Counted from the stretch's first letter, positions 1-6,897 are shown. The stretch is 6,960 nt of DNA from an uncultured archaeon (GCA_964565125.1 CAZMCX010000039.1:1-6960), one strand, 5' to 3'. The notes: generated from the letters alone by a model not told the origin. Numbers and translations: made by a program.

Positions 1-87
1 AGGCTTTGTATTCCAAAGATCTTGTGACACTTTGTAAAATATTTGTGTCGATAGATATAAAATATTCTACACTGTATGCCCAGTGTG

Positions 88-267
88 CTAGGCGAAGATT
101 TTTTCAAAGTATTTTGTTTTATAATTTTTTATTCTGTCCTTTGCAACATCACCTAAGTAATGCACATTTAAAACAAAGACAGTAACTATTGCAACCAAAA
201 CAATTGCAAAAACAATAGTTAAGAGGTACTCTAAAGATACTTGAGCCCTCTTTTCTTTAAAATACAT
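88..267 (-). CDS. Miniature class III signal-peptide (type IV prepilin-like) pilin, paralog A, 59 aa; not in supplied ORF track
   Basis: Manual reverse-strand translation with ATG at 267-265 and TAG at 90-88 gives MYFKEKRAQVSLEYLLTIVFAIVLVAIVTVFVLNVHYLGDVAKDRIKNYKTKYFEKIFA. A short basic leader (KEKRA) is followed by QVSLEYLL and about 25 uninterrupted hydrophobic residues. This fits the QxSxExxxL pattern of the archaeal Class_IIIsignal family (PF04021). An SD-like GTGATCC (plus strand 272-278) lies 4 nt upstream of the ATG and overlaps the stop of the upstream pilin gene. It is paralogous to the 278..478 ORF. Confidence 0.75.
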   Translation of the reverse strand: MYFKEKRAQVSLEYLLTIVFAIVLVAIVTVFVLNVHYLGDVAKDRIKNYKTKYFEKIFA

Positions 268-277
268 AAAAGGATCA

Positions 278-478
278 CTACTTTATTTCTGGTATTGCAG
301 CTTTTCCGCTTTTTAAGGTATCCGTGTAAACTTCGGTTTGGCTATTTACATCTGAGCCGCCTTTCTTGCCCAAATTAATTACAATAGCAATAACCACAGC
401 AGCCAGAACAATAGACCCACCAATAATTAAAAGGTACTCCAAAGCGCCTTGTGCTTTTTCATCTTTTAGAAATTTCAT
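278..478 (-). CDS. Miniature class III signal-peptide (type IV prepilin-like) pilin, paralog B, 66 aa
   Basis: The ORF-track protein is MKFLKDEKAQGALEYLLIIGGSIVLAAVVIAIVINLGKKGGSDVNSQTEVYTDTLKSGKAAIPEIK. It has a charged leader, then AQGALEYLL, a hydrophobic helix and a short hydrophilic tail. A strong SD (GGAGGGGT, reverse complement of 484-491) lies about 6 nt upstream of the ATG. Confidence 0.85.
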   Translation of the reverse strand: MKFLKDEKAQGALEYLLIIGGSIVLAAVVIAIVINLGKKGGSDVNSQTEVYTDTLKSGKAAIPEIK

Positions 479-501
479 TTTTTACCCCTCCAAAAATAAT
501 T

Positions 502-681
502 TTATTTTCCACTTGTTTTTTCATACAATTCTTTCCACTTGTTTTCATCTGGTTGAGATTCAACAACCTTGGTTTTAATATAATAACCTATTAATGTAAC
601 TAGTACCAAAACACCAGCTACAATCAATATTACTTCCAAAGATGTTTGTGCTTTTTTATCATCAATATAACTTTCATTCAT
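502..681 (-). CDS. Miniature class III signal-peptide (type IV prepilin-like) pilin, paralog C, 59 aa; not in supplied ORF track
   Basis: Manual reverse-strand translation with ATG at 681-679 and TAA at 504-502 gives MNESYIDDKKAQTSLEVILIVAGVLVLVTLIGYYIKTKVVESQPDENKWKELYEKTSGK. The leader ends in KKA, followed by QTSLEVIL and a hydrophobic helix. A partial SD (GTGAG) lies upstream. The gene starts 15 nt after the platform gene stop. Confidence 0.75.
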   Translation of the reverse strand: MNESYIDDKKAQTSLEVILIVAGVLVLVTLIGYYIKTKVVESQPDENKWKELYEKTSGK

Positions 682-696
682 AAATGCTCACTAAAA

Positions 697-1605
697 TTAC
701 ATCATTCCTATTAATAAATATTTCGAAAGGTACTTTATGCCGTAGAATGCAATATACGCACACAATAAAAACAATGGCAGATACAAAAAGGTTTTTGCAA
801 ATTTACGTTCACGCATGAAAACAACCATTATAGATGATGCCAAAGCCTGAATAAAAACAAATATAGTTAATACGCTTTCGATTAAATTTCTAACACCTAG
901 TGCAGTTGCAACTGTTTCTAGCTTTGCCAGTCCTGCAGATGATGTTACAGTAAGTAAAAAATCGATTAGGGTTAAAACCAAACCATAGATTGCGGGAGCA
1001 ATTATTGCTCCAGCTGCAAAAATAAAAAGCATTTGCATCATTGTTTTTGCTTTTCTATCTAATTCTAATTTGTATAATTTTCGCATATCTTCAGACAAAT
1101 CCTCTAAAATATCTGATAAAGAAGCACCAGCTTTTATAGAATCTGAAATTATAGATATTGTCTTTTTCACCATTTGTGAATCTACATTTTCAGCAACAAT
1201 AGATAATGATTCTTCAAAATTATAACCTTGTTCTAATCTTAGCAAAACATTTTCAAATTCATCATTCAATGGCCCATAATCATAAGTTGTCAACTCTCTT
1301 ATAGCGTATTCGTACGTTCCTCCGGTTTTTAAAAGATATGCAATTTCTCTTAATGCATTTGGAAAATACTTTTCTATAAGAGAAATTCTTTTCTCTTCTA
1401 AAAATAAGGGATAACCTATAAACAAATCAAATGCACACAAAAATCCTACGATCCCTAAAACTATATTTCCTAATAAAATAAACAAAAACAAAACTATCAA
1501 ACCAACAATCAAAGCAAGGAGAAGCCAAAGATTAACATTTATCTTTATTTTGTTCCTGTACAAAACAGTTTGGTATTTTTGCAACATCAAATTTATATTG
1601 AACAT
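697..1605 (-). CDS. Type IV filament platform protein, single T2SSF domain (TadC / EpdK-like), polytopic membrane protein
   Basis: The 302-aa ORF has an N-terminal TM hairpin and a cytoplasmic helical domain (FPNALREIAYLLKTGGTYEYAIRELT...LEQGYNFEESL...IKAGASLSDILEDLSEDM) typical of the GspF/PilC/TadC T2SSF fold (PF00482). C-terminal TM helices follow. SD GTGAT lies 5 nt upstream of the ATG at 1605. Confidence 0.85.
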   Translation of the reverse strand: MFNINLMLQKYQTVLYRNKIKINVNLWLLLALIVGLIVLFLFILLGNIVLGIVGFLCAFDLFIGYPLFLEEKRISLIEKYFPNALREIAYLLKTGGTYEYAIRELTTYDYGPLNDEFENVLLRLEQGYNFEESLSIVAENVDSQMVKKTISIISDSIKAGASLSDILEDLSEDMRKLYKLELDRKAKTMMQMLFIFAAGAIIAPAIYGLVLTLIDFLLTVTSSAGLAKLETVATALGVRNLIESVLTIFVFIQALASSIMVVFMRERKFAKTFLYLPLFLLCAYIAFYGIKYLSKYLLIGMM

Positions 1606-1614
1606 AAAATATCA

Positions 1615-2748
1615 CTATATACTTGGCCTTATACTTCTAATATACAATAACAAACCCAATAATATCAGCGGGAATATTACTAAAAAAGAAATTATTATTA
1701 CAGTTGGAGTTAAAGGAAGAGCATCAAAAAAGGAAATGCTCGATCCCAAAGGCGCATTCCTTATTCCAGATAATATTGCCAACATTACAGGAACAACAAT
1801 TCCAACAAAAATATAAATTACTCCTAAAAAATTTAATTTCCCAGAAAAGGTATCAATATCTGCAGACAATTGATAAGACACATCATCTGCAATTGTTGTC
1901 ATTATTTCTGACAAATTTCCTCCGCTCTTTAATGCTCTTAACAAATGATTTATTGCGTTTTTCAAAGCAAATGATTTTGTTCTGAGGGATAATGCTCTCA
2001 AAGCATCTTTAATGTCTTGGCCTTCTTCAACTTCCATTATTGTTTTTGTTAATTCTTGTGACAAAACACCATAATCAGATACAGCAACTGTTCTTACCAC
2101 TTTATACAAGTCCACCCCAGCTCTCAAGAGAGTTGCCATGTGCCTTAATGCAAAAGGCAAATTAGTATCTATTTCTTTAGCTCTCTTTTTTGCAATCATT
2201 GAGGGGTATTTCAAAGCAAAAAATGCACCCCCTATAAAAAAGAAGATGCACAATATTAAAGGTATTAAAAAACTTACTCCTAACAATAAAAATACAGAAA
2301 ATAATGCAATAATTACTACCAAATTAAATAAAAAAACAGAAACTGATGCTATTGCCAAATATTGTGAAACACTATAATTTATATCTGCAGAATAAAGTTC
2401 GTATGCTAACACTTTAGACTCTGGCAATTTTCCTAAAATCTTTTTTGCAATAAATCCAAAAAACTTGCTGAATTTAGTATATATTGTGCCAATATTTCGT
2501 ACAACAGGATTAAAACTGTACGATAAATCAGCAGGCTTCAACACTTCTATCTTTGCTCTTTTTCCCTCGGAGATCAATGATCTTAATTCTTTTAAATTAT
2601 ATGTTTCTGAATCCCCTAACAATCCTTGCTTCTCATATTTTTCTTTTATTCTACTAACTATGGCATCAACTTTAGACATGTCTATCTGTTCTTGTATTTC
2701 AACTTTATTTTTGCTGGTATCTGAAACAAAGGTTTGTTGATAAGCCAT
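1615..2748 (-). CDS. Type IV filament platform protein, single T2SSF domain (TadB / EpdJ-like), polytopic membrane protein with about 120-aa cytoplasmic N-terminal extension
   Basis: The 377-aa ORF has TM helices and a T2SSF-like cytoplasmic domain (LPFALRHMATLLRAGVDLYKVVRTVA...VEEGQDIKDALRAL...LKSGGNLSEIMTTIADD), followed by C-terminal TM helices. SD GAGGA lies 6 nt upstream of the ATG at 2748. Confidence 0.85.
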   Translation of the reverse strand: MAYQQTFVSDTSKNKVEIQEQIDMSKVDAIVSRIKEKYEKQGLLGDSETYNLKELRSLISEGKRAKIEVLKPADLSYSFNPVVRNIGTIYTKFSKFFGFIAKKILGKLPESKVLAYELYSADINYSVSQYLAIASVSVFLFNLVVIIALFSVFLLLGVSFLIPLILCIFFFIGGAFFALKYPSMIAKKRAKEIDTNLPFALRHMATLLRAGVDLYKVVRTVAVSDYGVLSQELTKTIMEVEEGQDIKDALRALSLRTKSFALKNAINHLLRALKSGGNLSEIMTTIADDVSYQLSADIDTFSGKLNFLGVIYIFVGIVVPVMLAILSGIRNAPLGSSISFFDALPLTPTVIIISFLVIFPLILLGLLLYIRSIRPSI

Positions 2749-2832
2749 AAAAATTCCTCTTTTTATTTTTTTGGACCTGTTGTTATTTTTCTTTTTGAGA
2801 AAAATAATTACTGGCCATATTCATCACAAATT

Positions 2833-4509
2833 TTAAGATTCATAATATTTCGCAATATATTTTGCGACATCGTCTTTTTTTCTTATATTTTTTTCTAACA
2901 ACAAATCAAAGAATTGTGCTCTATTATCTATTTCGTCTTTTACATTTTGTGTTGTTCTTCCAGAATATGTTGAAATATTTTTAACTACTCTTGAAGGTAT
3001 AGAAGTATCATATATTTTATCGCGTTTAGGATCCCATTCAAATATCCTTTGTGTTTTAATTTGATCTTCAATAACGCCAGAAACTTCAGAAATCTCCACA
3101 ATTCGTCTTATTGTTCCTTTTTTTTTGTCGTGCAACCTATTTTGAACAATTATCATATCCAATCCTGCCAACATCATCTTAGGAACGTTCATTGGTGGGT
3201 TTGTAATTCGTGTTAAAGTTTCATCAGAATTGTTTGCATGCAATGTTCCCATACTTCCATCGTGTCCTGTTGACATAGCAGTAAAAAGAGTATCTGCTTC
3301 AGCACCTCTTACTTCACCAACTATTATTCTATCGGGTCTCATTCTCAAAGCATTCTTTGTAAGCATCTCTAAAGTAATTTCCCCGGTGCCTTCTATTCCT
3401 GGTGGCCTAGATTCTAATCTAATCCAATGTTTCAAAGGGAGATTTAATTCTGAAGTGTCCTCGATCGAAATAATCCTTTCATATTCAGGGATCAAAGAAC
3501 ACAAAACATTTAGAGTTGTTGTTTTACCTGATCCTGTACCTCCAGAAATAACGATATTTGCTGGTTTTGTACTTAAGCCTTCAACACAAGTCCATAAAAA
3601 ACCAGCAACATAAGAATCAAATGTTTTATAACTTATCAAATCAACAACAGTATATGGCTCTTCTCTAAATTTTCTAATAGTTAAGGTAGAGCCTTGAACA
3701 GATGCTGGGGGCAAAGTAGCATTTACTCTTGATCCATCAGGCAAACGAGCATCCAATAATGGTTGTGAATAATCTATTCTTCTTCCTGCATATCTTGCAA
3801 TTCTTCCAACAATATCTTGAATCTCTTTATCAGTATAAAAAACAATATTTGTTGTCATCATTTCATATTGCCTATGAAAAACGTACACTGGGTGGTTTGG
3901 GCCAATAATCATTATTTCTTCTAATAAATCATCTTTTAACAAAAGATCTATTTTTCCAAAACCCACCATTTCTCTTACAACACTTTCAGCATAAAAACTT
4001 AACATGCTCTCTGGAATTTTCAATTCTGGAGATGAATTAATTATTTCCATAACTTTTTGATAATAAACATTCCATCTTTGTTTCTCGTCCCTTATTTTAT
4101 ATGGTGCTAGAGAAATTATTCTTGTAGCTGCTTCCTTTATTGTATTTATTATTTCTTGTTCGCTCGTATTTGCTTTTGGCACAGGCACTTCATAATGCAA
4201 TAATGGGCGTCCTTCTAATTTGTATATTGTAACTTGATTATATTTTGCAACAACTGTTTTTTGAACTTCTCCTAAAGAATCTACACTTATTTCTTTTGTT
4301 GTATTCAGTATATTTTTGAGATTTTCAAAATGTTTTGAATCAATTTTTTGAATTGGTACATCTTTTGTTGACTGTTCCTCTTCTGGCAAAGAAATTTTCT
4401 TTGGCGAACCAATTATACTCTGCAATTCTTTATTAAAATCGTCTTGTCTAATATCTTTCTTTTTCTTCTGTTGAGTATCCTTAAATAAATCTCCCATTAT
4501 TTCTCCCAT
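2833..4509 (-). CDS. Type II/IV secretion-family hexameric ATPase (FlaI/ArlI / CpaF-TadA / EpdL-like pilus assembly ATPase)
   Basis: Walker A is ISGGTGSGKTT (3517..3543), the Asp box is IISIEDTSEL, Walker B is RPDRIIVGEVRGAEA and the His box is TGHDGSMGTLHAN. All are diagnostic of the T2SSE family (PF00437). The track ORF begins at a TTG (4539). I place the start at ATG 4509, which is preceded by SD GGTGAT 3 nt upstream. ATG 4497 is an alternative start. Confidence 0.9.
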   Translation of the reverse strand: MGEIMGDLFKDTQQKKKKDIRQDDFNKELQSIIGSPKKISLPEEEQSTKDVPIQKIDSKHFENLKNILNTTKEISVDSLGEVQKTVVAKYNQVTIYKLEGRPLLHYEVPVPKANTSEQEIINTIKEAATRIISLAPYKIRDEKQRWNVYYQKVMEIINSSPELKIPESMLSFYAESVVREMVGFGKIDLLLKDDLLEEIMIIGPNHPVYVFHRQYEMMTTNIVFYTDKEIQDIVGRIARYAGRRIDYSQPLLDARLPDGSRVNATLPPASVQGSTLTIRKFREEPYTVVDLISYKTFDSYVAGFLWTCVEGLSTKPANIVISGGTGSGKTTTLNVLCSLIPEYERIISIEDTSELNLPLKHWIRLESRPPGIEGTGEITLEMLTKNALRMRPDRIIVGEVRGAEADTLFTAMSTGHDGSMGTLHANNSDETLTRITNPPMNVPKMMLAGLDMIIVQNRLHDKKKGTIRRIVEISEVSGVIEDQIKTQRIFEWDPKRDKIYDTSIPSRVVKNISTYSGRTTQNVKDEIDNRAQFFDLLLEKNIRKKDDVAKYIAKYYES

Positions 4510-4520
4510 CAAATCACCAA

Positions 4521-4528
4521 TATTTATA
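4521..4528 (-). promoter_or_regulatory. Candidate archaeal TATA box (TATAAATA on the minus strand) for the pilus operon
   Basis: The minus strand reads GGTATAAATATTGGTGATTTGATGGGAGAAATAATG. The TATA-like octamer ends 11 nt before ATG 4509 and 23 nt before ATG 4497. That spacing would fit a leaderless transcript starting near 4497. Other A/T-rich TATA-like strings (for example TTTATATG near 4589-4596) also occur in the spacer, so the assignment is weak. Confidence 0.25.
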
Positions 4529-4537
4529 CCTAACCAC

Positions 4538-4613
4538 AAATTTTACTGTTTAGTGTATTAGCCAATACACAATCGATACATAAAATTTACATATAAATTT
4601 TACTGCTTAGTGT
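4538..4613. repeat. Pair of 19-nt direct repeats (18/19 identical) flanking the rfcS/ATPase intergenic spacer, with an internal 7-bp hairpin
   Basis: Copy 1 at 4538-4556 is aaattttactgtttagtgt and copy 2 at 4595-4613 is aaattttactgcttagtgt. Copy 2 covers the last codons and stop of rfcS. Copy 1 lies just upstream of the ATPase start region. An inverted repeat gtgtatt/aatacac (4553-4559 / 4564-4570, 4-nt loop) overlaps the end of copy 1. Confidence 0.6.
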
Positions 4614-6897
4614 GTAAATTAAACATGGCCAACATAGCCTCTATTTGAAGCCTATCGTTTGCACCTTCAGATACTCTAAAATTAATTTCACTTATAATCT
4701 CAATTAAACTTACTTTTTCTCTCGAATTCAAATAATCCTCTGAAAAATCAACTACTTCGCGATAAATTTGATTCAAAATATCTTCTCCAGACATACCATA
4801 ATTAAACATCAGTTTGTATAAAAGATCTCTTGCATCTTTAAATTTTCCATCTTTTGCGAGTAAAACCATTTTTTTTACTTCTTCAGGCCTTGCCCTGGCA
4901 CTTACTGTGAATACTTCTTGCTCACCAATAGAATCATCCAAAACACTACACGCTTGTAAAATATTTATTGCTTTTCTCATGTCGCCTAATGAAACATAAA
5001 ATATTGCGCTCAATGCTTTATTATCTATTTTTAGTTTTTCGTTTTTCGAAACCTCTTCTAGTCTGTTTATAACAGATTCTTTTTCCAAAGGCTTAAACCT
5101 AAAGACAACACATCTTGATTGTATTGGTTCAATAATGCGTGATGAATAATTGCAAGATAAAATAAATCTGCATGTTCTTGTATATTTTTCCATTGTTCTT
5201 CTTAATGCTTGCTGGGCATCTTGTGTTAAAGCATCCGCCTCATCCAAAAAAATAATTTTATACTCAGCCTCTAAGGGGAGGGTTCTTGCAAAATCTTTTA
5301 TTGTTTTTCTAACAACATCGATGCCCCTGTCATCACTATTATGAAGCAAAACAGGGGCTGTGCCACCCCAAAAAACTTCAGCACCCGGAACAGAAACATC
5401 ATACACATAATCATTATGTTTTTCCTTTTTTATTTCTGTTACCGCTAGAACATATAAATCAGAATTTACTAATTTGTTGAGCTTTTCTAATCCTTTTTTA
5501 TTTTTTAATAATGCCAATACTTTTTCTGCAGCAGTCTTCGAAATACGATCACACATTTTACTATAAAGTGAATGTCTCAGCAAATATTTTGTCTTCCCTT
5601 TGTATTTTTCTGCTAATTTGTTGAATATTTTTGATGGCAAAAGTTCTGCTTTAGTATAACTAAAAGATTTATTTGGCCAAATTAATCTTGTTTCTTTTGG
5701 AAAAACGCTTGATTCAACATTAGATAGTCTACTTAACCAAACAACATCTATAAGACATTCTTGAGATACTGATGATATTCGTGCAACTTTTTCCCAAATT
5801 CCGGAACCATCACCATCCCAATATCCTTTTATAAATGATAATCTTTGTTTTGAATTTGTATCAAAAATAAAGGTGGGTACTCTTTTTGTATTCGCTTTGT
5901 GGGATATATCGCCACCATAAAAATTAGCTTGCATAAACTTTGCTAATTGTGTATTAAAAACTCTTGTCTGCAAAGAGGTTTTCTTTGTTCTATCAAAACC
6001 AGATGCTCCTAAATAACAAGAATAGTTTAATCCTAAAGAAGTACTTATTTTTTGTATATTTTCTATATGCGGTACATCTTTTGGGTTGGGATAACCCAAA
6101 GTATAAATAATCTGACCACTAGTACCTGTGTTTGACATAGAAGTACAACCTTCTGCTAAATACATTCCAAAATACCAACTTAAATCATCATCAATTGAAA
6201 GTGTGTCAAAATTTTTTTTGAATGTAGGATTTGGTTGAATACCACTTCTTAATTGACAAAATTCAGCAGATTTATATTTTTCTAAATCAATATAATTTGA
6301 TTGCCCTTCAAAATCTGTTTTAAAAGAAATCAAAAGATCGCCTTTCTTTATTTCTGAGGCTTTTTTAGTAATTATATTGCCACAATCATCAAAAACCATT
6401 ATAGAATGAGATAAACTTGTTTTTACTTCGCCACCTTCATATTTTATTTTTAATATTTCGTTTACTTTATGTCTAAACAAATGTCCTACTTTCATAAATT
6501 TAACATTGTTGCACTTATCTAAAGATAACACTTCTAGATCATCAATACAAACCCGCTTAGATACAAAATCTAAAAAATATTTCTCTGCGAGCCAACCAAA
6601 ATTAACTCTATGTATTTCTTTGCCTTCTTTTATTAAAATTGGTGTATCTGGTGTTACACTCGCATTTAATTCTAAAAAATTTCTCTCAGCATTTTCTTTG
6701 AACAATTGTTTAGATATTGCTATTGCACTGGTTGTTTTTCCTGTACCTGCGGGCCCTGCAAAAATCATATTTGGAAGATCTTTATCCTCTGTGTATTTCT
6801 TTAATCTTTTTACAACTAGTTCGTTTCCTACAACATCATTTAAAGAATCAGGCCTATATTTTTCAACCCACGGCAAATTCGCATCTTTGTGTGTCAT
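4600..6897 (-). CDS. rfcS: Replication factor C small subunit (clamp loader) precursor containing one intein; predicted spliced product 324 aa
   Basis: The exteins carry all RFC small-subunit boxes. These are PWVEKYRP, Walker A GPAGTGKTT (6730..6756), NFLELNA|SDDRGIDVVR, Walker B IIFLDEADALT, SRC motif PIQSRCVVFRF and sensor-2 GDMRKAIN, plus a C-terminal Rep_fac_C-like helical domain. A 441-aa insertion separates ELNA from SDDRG. SD AGAGGGA lies upstream of the ATG at 6897. Confidence 0.93.
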   Translation of the reverse strand: MTHKDANLPWVEKYRPDSLNDVVGNELVVKRLKKYTEDKDLPNMIFAGPAGTGKTTSAIAISKQLFKENAERNFLELNASVTPDTPILIKEGKEIHRVNFGWLAEKYFLDFVSKRVCIDDLEVLSLDKCNNVKFMKVGHLFRHKVNEILKIKYEGGEVKTSLSHSIMVFDDCGNIITKKASEIKKGDLLISFKTDFEGQSNYIDLEKYKSAEFCQLRSGIQPNPTFKKNFDTLSIDDDLSWYFGMYLAEGCTSMSNTGTSGQIIYTLGYPNPKDVPHIENIQKISTSLGLNYSCYLGASGFDRTKKTSLQTRVFNTQLAKFMQANFYGGDISHKANTKRVPTFIFDTNSKQRLSFIKGYWDGDGSGIWEKVARISSVSQECLIDVVWLSRLSNVESSVFPKETRLIWPNKSFSYTKAELLPSKIFNKLAEKYKGKTKYLLRHSLYSKMCDRISKTAAEKVLALLKNKKGLEKLNKLVNSDLYVLAVTEIKKEKHNDYVYDVSVPGAEVFWGGTAPVLLHNSDDRGIDVVRKTIKDFARTLPLEAEYKIIFLDEADALTQDAQQALRRTMEKYTRTCRFILSCNYSSRIIEPIQSRCVVFRFKPLEKESVINRLEEVSKNEKLKIDNKALSAIFYVSLGDMRKAINILQACSVLDDSIGEQEVFTVSARARPEEVKKMVLLAKDGKFKDARDLLYKLMFNYGMSGEDILNQIYREVVDFSEDYLNSREKVSLIEIISEINFRVSEGANDRLQIEAMLAMFNLHTKQ
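5338..6660 (-). mobile_element. Intein (441 aa, residues 80-520 of the RFC precursor) with embedded double-LAGLIDADG homing endonuclease
   Basis: Block A is SVTPDTPILIKEG (Ser1) and block B is EVKTSLSHSIMVF. LAGLIDADG motif 1 is LSWYFGMYLAEGC (6145..6183) and motif 2 is LSFIKGYWDGDGS (5803..5841). Block F is DYVYDVSVPGAEVFWGG and block G is APVLLHN, followed by the +1 Ser. In-silico excision regenerates the canonical RFC sequence NFLELNASDDRGI. Confidence 0.88.

Follow-up and report, generated by a model that had tools for sequence, protein, structure and literature searches.

Whether a type IV filament machine can be encoded by as few as six genes is the question raised by a stretch of DNA from an uncultured archaeon (GCA_964565125.1 CAZMCX010000039.1:1-6960). 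Termed the window here, this stretch of 6960 nucleotides (nt) carries a cluster of type IV pilus genes, and coordinates given below are positions in the whole window unless the locus of a relative is named. The original prediction described the cluster as a minimal six-gene machine near the theoretical minimum. That description fails just beyond the window edge, where an EppA-type peptidase gene and three to five pilin-like genes continue the same operon past position 1. Positions 1–4599 very probably constitute the promoter-proximal half of a conserved EppA-dependent (Epd-like) pilus operon of approximately 12 genes in the Diapherotrites/Iainarchaeota, which are DPANN archaea.

The GC content of the window ranges from 28% to 37%, and every sizeable open reading frame (ORF) lies on the minus strand. 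From high to low coordinates, the six pilus genes, all on that strand, encode an ATPase (2833..4509; 558 amino acids from an ATG at 4509, within a maximal ORF of 2833–4539), platform protein 1 (1615..2748; 377 amino acids), platform protein 2 (697..1605; 302 amino acids), mini-pilin 1 (502..681; 59 amino acids), mini-pilin 2 (278..478; 66 amino acids), and mini-pilin 3 (88..267; 59 amino acids). Counted from the maximal ORF of the ATPase to pilin 3, the spacers between consecutive pilus ORFs measure 84, 9, 15, 23, and 10 nt; the co-oriented layout and the gap lengths reported originally were thus recovered exactly. The ATPase matches the Pfam family T2SSE (PF00437; 1.1e-46), and each platform protein contains a single T2SSF domain (PF00482; 3e-21 for platform 1 and 5.2e-16 for platform 2). 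The mini-pilins match Class_IIIsignal (PF04021) at 4e-8, 5.4e-5, and 2.1e-4, respectively, with the matches of mini-pilins 2 and 3 falling just below the gathering score. The match strengths of the six proteins are far beyond chance and bear out the gene identities first assigned, namely one ATPase, two platform proteins, and three pilins.

The operon does not stop where the window does. The parent contig and other assemblies were located by exact-sequence look-up of the platform protein and the ATPase. Over its full length, positions 1–87 included, the window aligns without gaps to the 34.9-kb ENA contig ERZ27293347 k141_219203 (loci L001/L003) at 99.9% identity, with 7 mismatches in 6960 nt. 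On this contig, a peptidase gene starts 144 nt past the stop codon of pilin 3, or 58 nt outside the window as counted from position 1, and an independently assembled second contig (L004) has an identical continuation past the window edge. After the peptidase gene, the parent contig carries three ORFs with class-III-type N termini: one of 194 amino acids with the cleavage site KKGQ/LSVEFLL (the slash marks the cleavage position here and below), one of 110 amino acids with NKGQ/VAIDLLF, and one of at least 136 amino acids with QKG/FFISLDLII. The contig then terminates inside the tenth operon gene. The minimal look of the cluster is therefore an edge artefact, arising because the window ends 58 nt before the peptidase gene. 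The earlier statement that prepilin peptidase and accessory genes are lacking is literally true inside the window and fails immediately outside it, since inspection of the flanking contig next to position 1 revealed both. Two other predicted absences have stood: no KaiC/FlaH/MinD-type partner is encoded anywhere in the operon or its flanks, and no secretin is encoded among the genes flanking the operon.

The same organization is evident in related genomes. In a scan that took one genome from each species, 20 loci were found, the closest of which are all titled Candidatus Diapherotrites, Candidatus Iainarchaeum, or "uncultured archaeon"; Iainarchaeota is a phylum within DPANN/Nanobdellati, and the set includes a complete genome, AR10 (CP010424). 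A complete operon of 12 genes in approximately 7.7 kb is found in L008, whose ATPase is 84% identical to that of the window, and in L007/L018 (76%). In L008 and L007, the order is ATPase, platform 1, platform 2, three mini-pilins, peptidase, and five class-III-type proteins of 80–193 amino acids with the sites KGQ/LSVEF, KGQ/ISIDL, KG/FFISID, KG/LIFILD, and KG/FFSVAL. Five class-III-signal ORFs likewise lie downstream of the peptidase gene in L009, and the operon of L007 and L008 is bounded by convergent Peptidase_M48 and LemA genes. More broadly, gene order was surveyed by ORF, BLAST, and motif comparison in all loci with sufficient downstream DNA. A common order is kept in 13 distinct loci, nearly all from Diapherotrites/Iainarchaeum and including AR10, and consists of ATPase, platform 1, platform 2, two to four mini-pilins, peptidase, and one to six larger class-III proteins. 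Homologues of the ATPase number at least 8000 at E ≤ 1e-10. The best 120 include many at 55%–65% identity, and the named homologues among them come mostly from DPANN metagenome-assembled genomes (MAGs) and are annotated as "CpaF family protein" at NCBI and as "FlaI" at JGI. Given this very large ATPase family and the order kept in 13 loci, the locus is a common and conserved one in DPANN archaea rather than a one-off: it is an Epd-like type IV pilus locus of a DPANN archaeon, abundant in public MAGs.

The gene just outside the window supplies the component that had appeared to be missing. The encoded protein, 371 amino acids in length, matches Peptidase_A24 (1.1e-10) and Arc_PepC, the archaeal Peptidase A24 C-terminal domain (5.7e-5). 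Its best NCBIfam model is EppA, which aligns end to end (residues 6–360 versus profile positions 3–331 of 334; E 4e-13), whereas the FlaK profile covers only the N-terminal 120 residues. Both catalytic aspartates, in the motifs TD..RE and GGD, are invariant in 19 homologues. The AlphaFold2 model (mean predicted local distance difference test score [pLDDT] 82.5) contains approximately nine transmembrane (TM) helices, the last of them preceded by a soluble alpha/beta domain, and a fold search with this model returned FlaK (3S0X) as the sole meaningful PDB neighbor. A homologue search gave 21 matches, all unnamed or generically named, with none labeled EppA.

The predicted substrates agree with such a peptidase. 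The processing sites of the mini-pilins, KA/QTSLE, KA/QGALEY, and RA/QVSLEY, match the EppA substrate motif [KR][AG]/Q..E. Cleavage is predicted at MNESYIDDKKA/QTSLEVIL in mini-pilin 1, at MKFLKDEKA/QGALEYLLIIGG in mini-pilin 2, and at MYFKEKRA/QVSLEYLLTIV in mini-pilin 3, which would leave mature proteins of 48, 57, and 51 amino acids, respectively. In an alignment of 17 pilin sequences, Q+1, L+4, E+5, and L+8 are invariant and Y+6 is nearly so; the pair E5-Y6 is present in mini-pilins 2 and 3. Across the loci, three mini-pilin types recur: Q[TS]S[IL]E (the mini-pilin 1 type, found in most related loci), QGALEYLL, and QVS[FL]EYL (the mini-pilin 3 type, found in nearly all). Mini-pilin 2, whose gene has a strong Shine-Dalgarno sequence (GGAGGGG) upstream, is modeled by AlphaFold2 as a single helix spanning residues 3–60, with pLDDT values of 84–96 in the hydrophobic part. 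A homologue search with this protein gave 14 matches, a small number because small ORFs are seldom called. When the pilin profile was searched against PDB sequences, the only matches were insignificant (E ≥ 0.29) and fell in the N-terminal helices of archaellins and archaeal pilins, and the Pfam Flp model (Flp_Fap) did not match the pilins at E ≤ 0.1.

The operon encodes up to five larger pilin-like proteins (96–194 amino acids) downstream of the peptidase, and for these Pfam detected no family beyond borderline Class_IIIsignal matches. The last three (d3–d5) have KG/FF.. or KG/[LVF]IF.. sites with no Gln+1, a feature conserved in relatives (L008:7363-8729, L007:16232-17431, L009:6620-7713, and, in the parent contig, L001:14813-15220). 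The peptidase may therefore tolerate more sites than Methanococcus EppA does, or another peptidase may be encoded elsewhere in the genome.

The motor components point in the same direction. The ATPase has GGTGSGKTT as its Walker A motif and TGHDGSMGTLHAN as its His box; both of these, together with RLE.RPP, are shared with CpaF. None of the NCBIfam cut-offs is reached by the ATPase: it scores 313 bits against FlaI (NF058587; cut-off 550), 245 against TadA (TIGR03819; cut-off 373), which is below the TadA equivalog level, and 203 against BasE (cut-off 1000). The UpsF family model gave 39 bits (cut-off 400). Among structures in the PDB, afGspE (275 bits), CpaF (253), and FlaI (227) match the ATPase, and over 324 core columns its identity is 45% to CpaF, 40% to afGspE, and 37% to FlaI. 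In a rough, midpoint-rooted neighbor-joining (NJ) tree, for which the three PDB anchors (CpaF, afGspE, and FlaI) were transcribed from HMMER alignments, the DPANN ATPase clade joins CpaF and not the pair of afGspE and FlaI. Three starts were considered for the ATPase, namely ATG 4509 (558 amino acids, beginning MGEIMGDLF), ATG 4497 (554 amino acids), and TTG 4539 (the maximal ORF). ATG 4509 is the more likely one, because a GGTGAT Shine-Dalgarno sequence (4513–4518) lies 3 nt upstream and the resulting N terminus agrees with MGEVLGDLF of the 84% identical homologue; ATG 4497 is an alternative, and TTG 4539 is unlikely. Platform 1 aligns to ArlJ/FlaJ profile positions 7–211 of 555, and platform 2 aligns to positions 175–462 of 465 and 269–552 of 555 in ArlJ/FlaJ profiles. 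The two proteins thus map to the N- and C-terminal halves of FlaJ, which indicates a FlaJ split in two with its original order retained.

From these components, a mechanism can be proposed. The pilus genes are probably transcribed as one unit, because junctions in close relatives measure 5–25 nt, including the one between the ATPase gene and the RFC (replication factor C) small-subunit gene upstream of it. Eight prepilin-like proteins would enter the membrane, where the GxGD aspartyl peptidase would cut a leader of 8–11 residues after [KR][AG] and expose Gln+1, with Glu+5 following. An ATPase hexamer would dock on a heterodimer of platform 1 and platform 2 (the split FlaJ), and this machine would extract the helix-only pilins and stack them into a thin filament of the Flp/EpdE type. 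The best candidates for a priming or tip complex, as in the Makarova clade-1 model, are the five larger pilin-like proteins, which probably form it. By analogy, the filament would most likely serve in surface or cell attachment and possibly also in DNA capture; adhesion is the default function because EppA-dependent attachment has been demonstrated in Methanococcus maripaludis (PMC4371748).

Several points weigh against reading the locus as an EppA-dependent pilus operon of approximately 12 genes. The parent contig ends within the tenth gene, so genes 11 and 12 of this particular operon are predicted from relatives only. The peptidase scores 49 bits against the EppA equivalog, for which the cut-off is 450. 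The d3–d5 sites would, in Methanococcus, be those of EppA non-substrates. Membership of the ATPase in the Epd clade is suggested by a proxy, the midpoint-rooted NJ tree with three PDB anchors, in which the core groups with CpaF, a published sister of Epd. Moreover, the called genes of L007 and L008 and those of the parent contig, over a stretch that begins 10 kb upstream and reaches the operon end, include no MinD/FleN or FlaH-like ATPase.

Other explanations of the locus fare worse. A self-contained six-gene pilus machine needing no dedicated peptidase or accessory genes would account for a window that holds no further pilus gene, yet it is exceedingly improbable given the EppA-type peptidase gene 58 nt past the window end on a 99.9% identical contig and the presence of a peptidase gene and more pilin-like genes in all related loci of sufficient length. 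An archaellum locus dedicated to rotary motility has practically no chance of being correct. FlaI is indeed the top NCBIfam match of the ATPase in raw bits, and JGI applies this name to the homologues, but the FlaI cut-off is missed (313 versus 550 bits), the platform is split rather than a single FlaJ, the pilins would have approximately 50 mature residues, and the ATPase core is nearer to CpaF. Furthermore, no archaellin or FlaH/F/G/CDE/X gene occurs in the window or in approximately 15 kb of the parent contig, so that the absence of archaellin genes nearby and the grouping of the ATPase with CpaF rather than FlaI or afGspE both leave the initial classification of the locus intact. A pseudopilus or bindosome-like system for secretion or substrate capture (Bas- or T2SS-like), with no extended pilus, is improbable as well. 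Such a system could make use of the five co-encoded larger class-III-signal proteins of unknown fold as surface-anchored cargo; however, the BasE model yields 203 bits where 1000 are required, none of the downstream proteins gave a solute-binding domain, and the conserved trio of major-pilin-like proteins favors a filament.

A possibility of a different kind, tentative and well short of an even chance, is that the locus encodes a competence pilus whose main job is DNA uptake, handing DNA to an OB-fold/TctA-like channel and supplying DNA or nucleotides to an archaeon with a reduced genome. In M. maripaludis, the Epd genes (eppA, epdA/C/F, and epdJ/K/L) are essential for natural transformation, which also needs both MMJJ_13020 (OB-fold, 1 TM) and MMJJ_13030 (TctA-like, 11 TM), a pair proposed to be a DNA transporter (PMC10133366). 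TctA is joined to the operon in seven distant Iainarchaeota loci, with an OB-fold gene beside it in five, and the gene context in relatives may favor DNA uptake at least as much as the speculative role in host attachment. However, in the sub-lineage of the window (L001/L003, L007, L008, and L009) no OB-fold or TctA gene adjoins the operon, which ends instead at the convergent M48/LemA genes; the channel role of TctA is itself still a hypothesis, and adhesion and DNA uptake are compatible. Since the adjacency is absent in this sub-lineage, DNA uptake is there a plausible rival or added function, not a demonstrated one. The more general proposal, that the Iainarchaeota Epd-like operon is a DNA-uptake machine which in sister lineages is fused to the OB-fold and TctA-like pair, is rather unlikely on present evidence. 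If the competence explanation were true, it would provide independent genomic-context support for an archaeal DNA transporter and would suggest that DPANN archaea import DNA or nucleotides via such pili.

The TctA linkage is an observation in its own right. The seven more distant Iainarchaeota loci in question are L010, L011, L013, L017, L019 (AR10), L021, and L027, in which a gene for a TctA-family protein of approximately 390 amino acids (Pfam TctA, 1e-33 to 4e-52) lies on the same strand as the pilus genes, either immediately behind the pilin-like block or within it. The region spans L019:16689-18855, L010:16173-17721, L021:17109-18705, L027:17406-18951, and L011:10314-11474. In L010, L017, L019, L021, and L027, a membrane-anchored OB-fold protein of approximately 125 amino acids is encoded beside TctA, recognized by Pfam (1e-6 to 3e-9) in all of these except L017, where it was detected by tblastn only. 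A DUF2101 protein is often found alongside the pair. No paper was found in the literature tying TctA-like genes to DPANN pilus operons. The linkage of pilus, TctA, and OB-fold genes in relatives is the feature worth following up and, if functional, bears on archaeal DNA uptake and on nucleotide supply in DPANN archaea with reduced genomes.

Returning to the Epd-like operon itself, three of its junctions are expanded here (approximately 90, 84, and 144 nt) compared with relatives, in which they measure 5–25 nt or the genes overlap. The spacer between the RFC stop and the ATPase start (4510..4599, minus strand; 8–25 nt in relatives) contains, besides the Shine-Dalgarno sequence, a TATA-like TATAAATA at 4521–4528 and a 19-nt direct repeat (4538–4556 and 4595–4613) that duplicates the RFC 3ʹ end; from these features, the spacer is a putative promoter region. 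Between the genes for the ATPase and platform 1 lies an A-rich, lineage-specific spacer (2749..2832, minus strand), of 84 nt here versus 9 nt in L008; in L007 the two genes overlap. The spacer between pilin 3 and the peptidase gene measures 144 nt here versus 5–9 nt in relatives; its first 87 nt lie in the window (1..87, minus strand), where they were aligned to L001, and contain a hairpin at 69–86 followed by a T-rich run. The motif GTAAAATTTRTR occurs in 6 minus-strand copies versus 0.9 expected; of these copies, 4 are in or at the expanded spacers. Scans of the window detected no tRNA and, at gathering thresholds, no Rfam family. A sigma-70 promoter scan gave 33 sites versus 32.4 expected, and the sigma-70 model is uninformative for an archaeon.

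Upstream of the operon, on the same strand, the RFC small-subunit gene (4600-6897, minus strand; 765 amino acids) directly precedes that of the pilus ATPase. The pairing is seen in the window (4510-6897), L007:9021-10001, L008:3-996, and L009:19-699, and in more distant Iainarchaeota, the RFC gene lies at most approximately 5 kb upstream. This pairing of a replication gene with pilus genes is odd yet conserved. The RFC protein of the window contains one intein of approximately 445 amino acids, inserted at ELNA/S...HN/SDDRGID (slashes here mark the insertion points) and with weak LAGLIDADG/homing-endonuclease matches; no intein is present in the L007, L008, and L009 orthologues, which are approximately 320 amino acids long. 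Farther upstream, a ThyX (Thy1) gene (L001:2783-4357) encodes 524 amino acids with two Thy1-matching stretches, about twice the usual length, and the double length is kept in L007 (527 amino acids).

The pilus ATPase also varies among relatives. In several related genomes, it is 755–1180 amino acids long versus approximately 560 (L019:8659-11814, L021:8455-11997, L022:8662-11970, L027:8647-11766, and L020:8731-10998; also L015–L017), and one ATPase homologue, P0102, has a Pfam Intein_splicing match. Inteins therefore seem to be repeated invaders of the pilus ATPase in Iainarchaeota. A 57% identical homologue, P0091, carries the label "Candidatus Izemoplasmatales bacterium," for which a mis-binned DPANN contig is the likeliest explanation and transfer into a bacterium a less likely one. 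Finally, at an ATPase identity of approximately 35%, four loci from Thermoplasmatota MAGs (L023–L026) have a compact arrangement of ATPase, platform, platform, and a second ATPase, with a class-III-signal protein of 274 amino acids encoded upstream.

Comparison with known systems places the locus nearest to the Epd-like pili, and the Epd/Tad-like type IV filament call of the original prediction is upheld by the split platform, the short Gln+1/Glu+5 pilins, the ATPase score below the FlaI cut-off, and the grouping with CpaF. As defined by Denise et al. 2019, Epd-like systems have two single-T2SSF platform genes, resulting from FlaJ fission, and unusually short major pilins, traits that this group has in common with bacterial Tad (PMC6668835). 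Clade 1 of Makarova 2016 comprises an ATPase, two TadC proteins, at least five minor pilins, and EppA, often with a FleN/MinD ATPase (PMC4858521). EppA sites compiled by Pohlschroder and Esquivel 2015 include RAQI, KGQV, KGQL, and KGQI, with Gln+1 required and Glu+5 conserved (PMC4371748), and the mature size of EpdE is 6.4 kDa (PMC4390842). The likeness to the Epd system of M. maripaludis (EpdL, EpdJ/EpdK, EppA, and EpdA-E) extends to two single-T2SSF platform genes, [KR][GA]/Q pilins with Glu+5, a very short candidate major pilin (48–57 amino acids when mature), a large multi-TM A24 peptidase with Arc_PepC encoded beside the pilins, and approximately five further pilin-like genes. Unlike in Methanococcus, where three or more loci are involved, the genes here form a single operon, and the host is a DPANN archaeon rather than a methanogen. 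EpdE has four N-glycosylation sequons, whereas the mini-pilins here have no N-X-S/T sequon and are therefore probably not N-glycosylated. Additional differences are the three pilin-like proteins that lack Gln+1 and the divergence of the peptidase and ATPase, which is too great for equivalog-level assignment. A FleN/MinD (arCOG00589) or FlaH-like ATPase, found in many clade-1/Epd loci but not universal, is unlinked here. The known range of EppA has been given as clade-1 organisms only (Makarova 2016, PMC4858521) and as a subset of euryarchaea (2015 review, PMC4371748); the present locus extends EppA-dependent pilus architecture to DPANN archaea, and a whole system in one compact operon would be suited to heterologous reconstitution.

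Resemblance to other machines is more partial. The archaellum core (FlaI/ArlI, FlaJ/ArlJ, and FlaK) resembles the locus in its ATPase, platform, and GxGD peptidase, which are homologous, and in class III signal peptides, but the pilins here begin with Gln+1, which Methanococcus FlaK does not cleave. Membership in the Bas, Ups, or Aap systems of Sulfolobales was rejected on the BasE and UpsF scores given above. The DPANN loci with "dark matter" pilins of Makarova et al. 2019, presented in a general statement and one figure panel (PMC6393860), likewise consist of an ATPase and TadC core followed by unannotated small signal-peptide proteins; no publication was found that describes the operon of Iainarchaeota as Epd-like or that reports its linkage to TctA and OB-fold genes. 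True membership in the bacterial Tad/Flp system (CpaF/TadA, TadB, TadC, Flp, and TadV/CpaA) was also rejected, as the TadA cut-off is missed and no domains of the secretin RcpA/CpaC, TadZ, or TadD-G are present in the operon or its flanks. In addition, the ATPase here, unlike that of Tad, has the archaeal C-terminal extension that FlaI and afGspE also possess, the two platform halves follow the order of FlaJ, with the N-half preceding the C-half, and the peptidase is of the long archaeal EppA type. Nevertheless, the likeness to Tad includes the split platform and helix-only pilins of approximately 50 amino acids with Glu5-Tyr6 as in the Flp motif (G/xxxxEY). Because the ATPase core is 45% identical to Caulobacter crescentus CpaF and the pilins have this Flp-like EY pair, the DPANN systems may be closer to bacterial Tad than Methanococcus Epd is.

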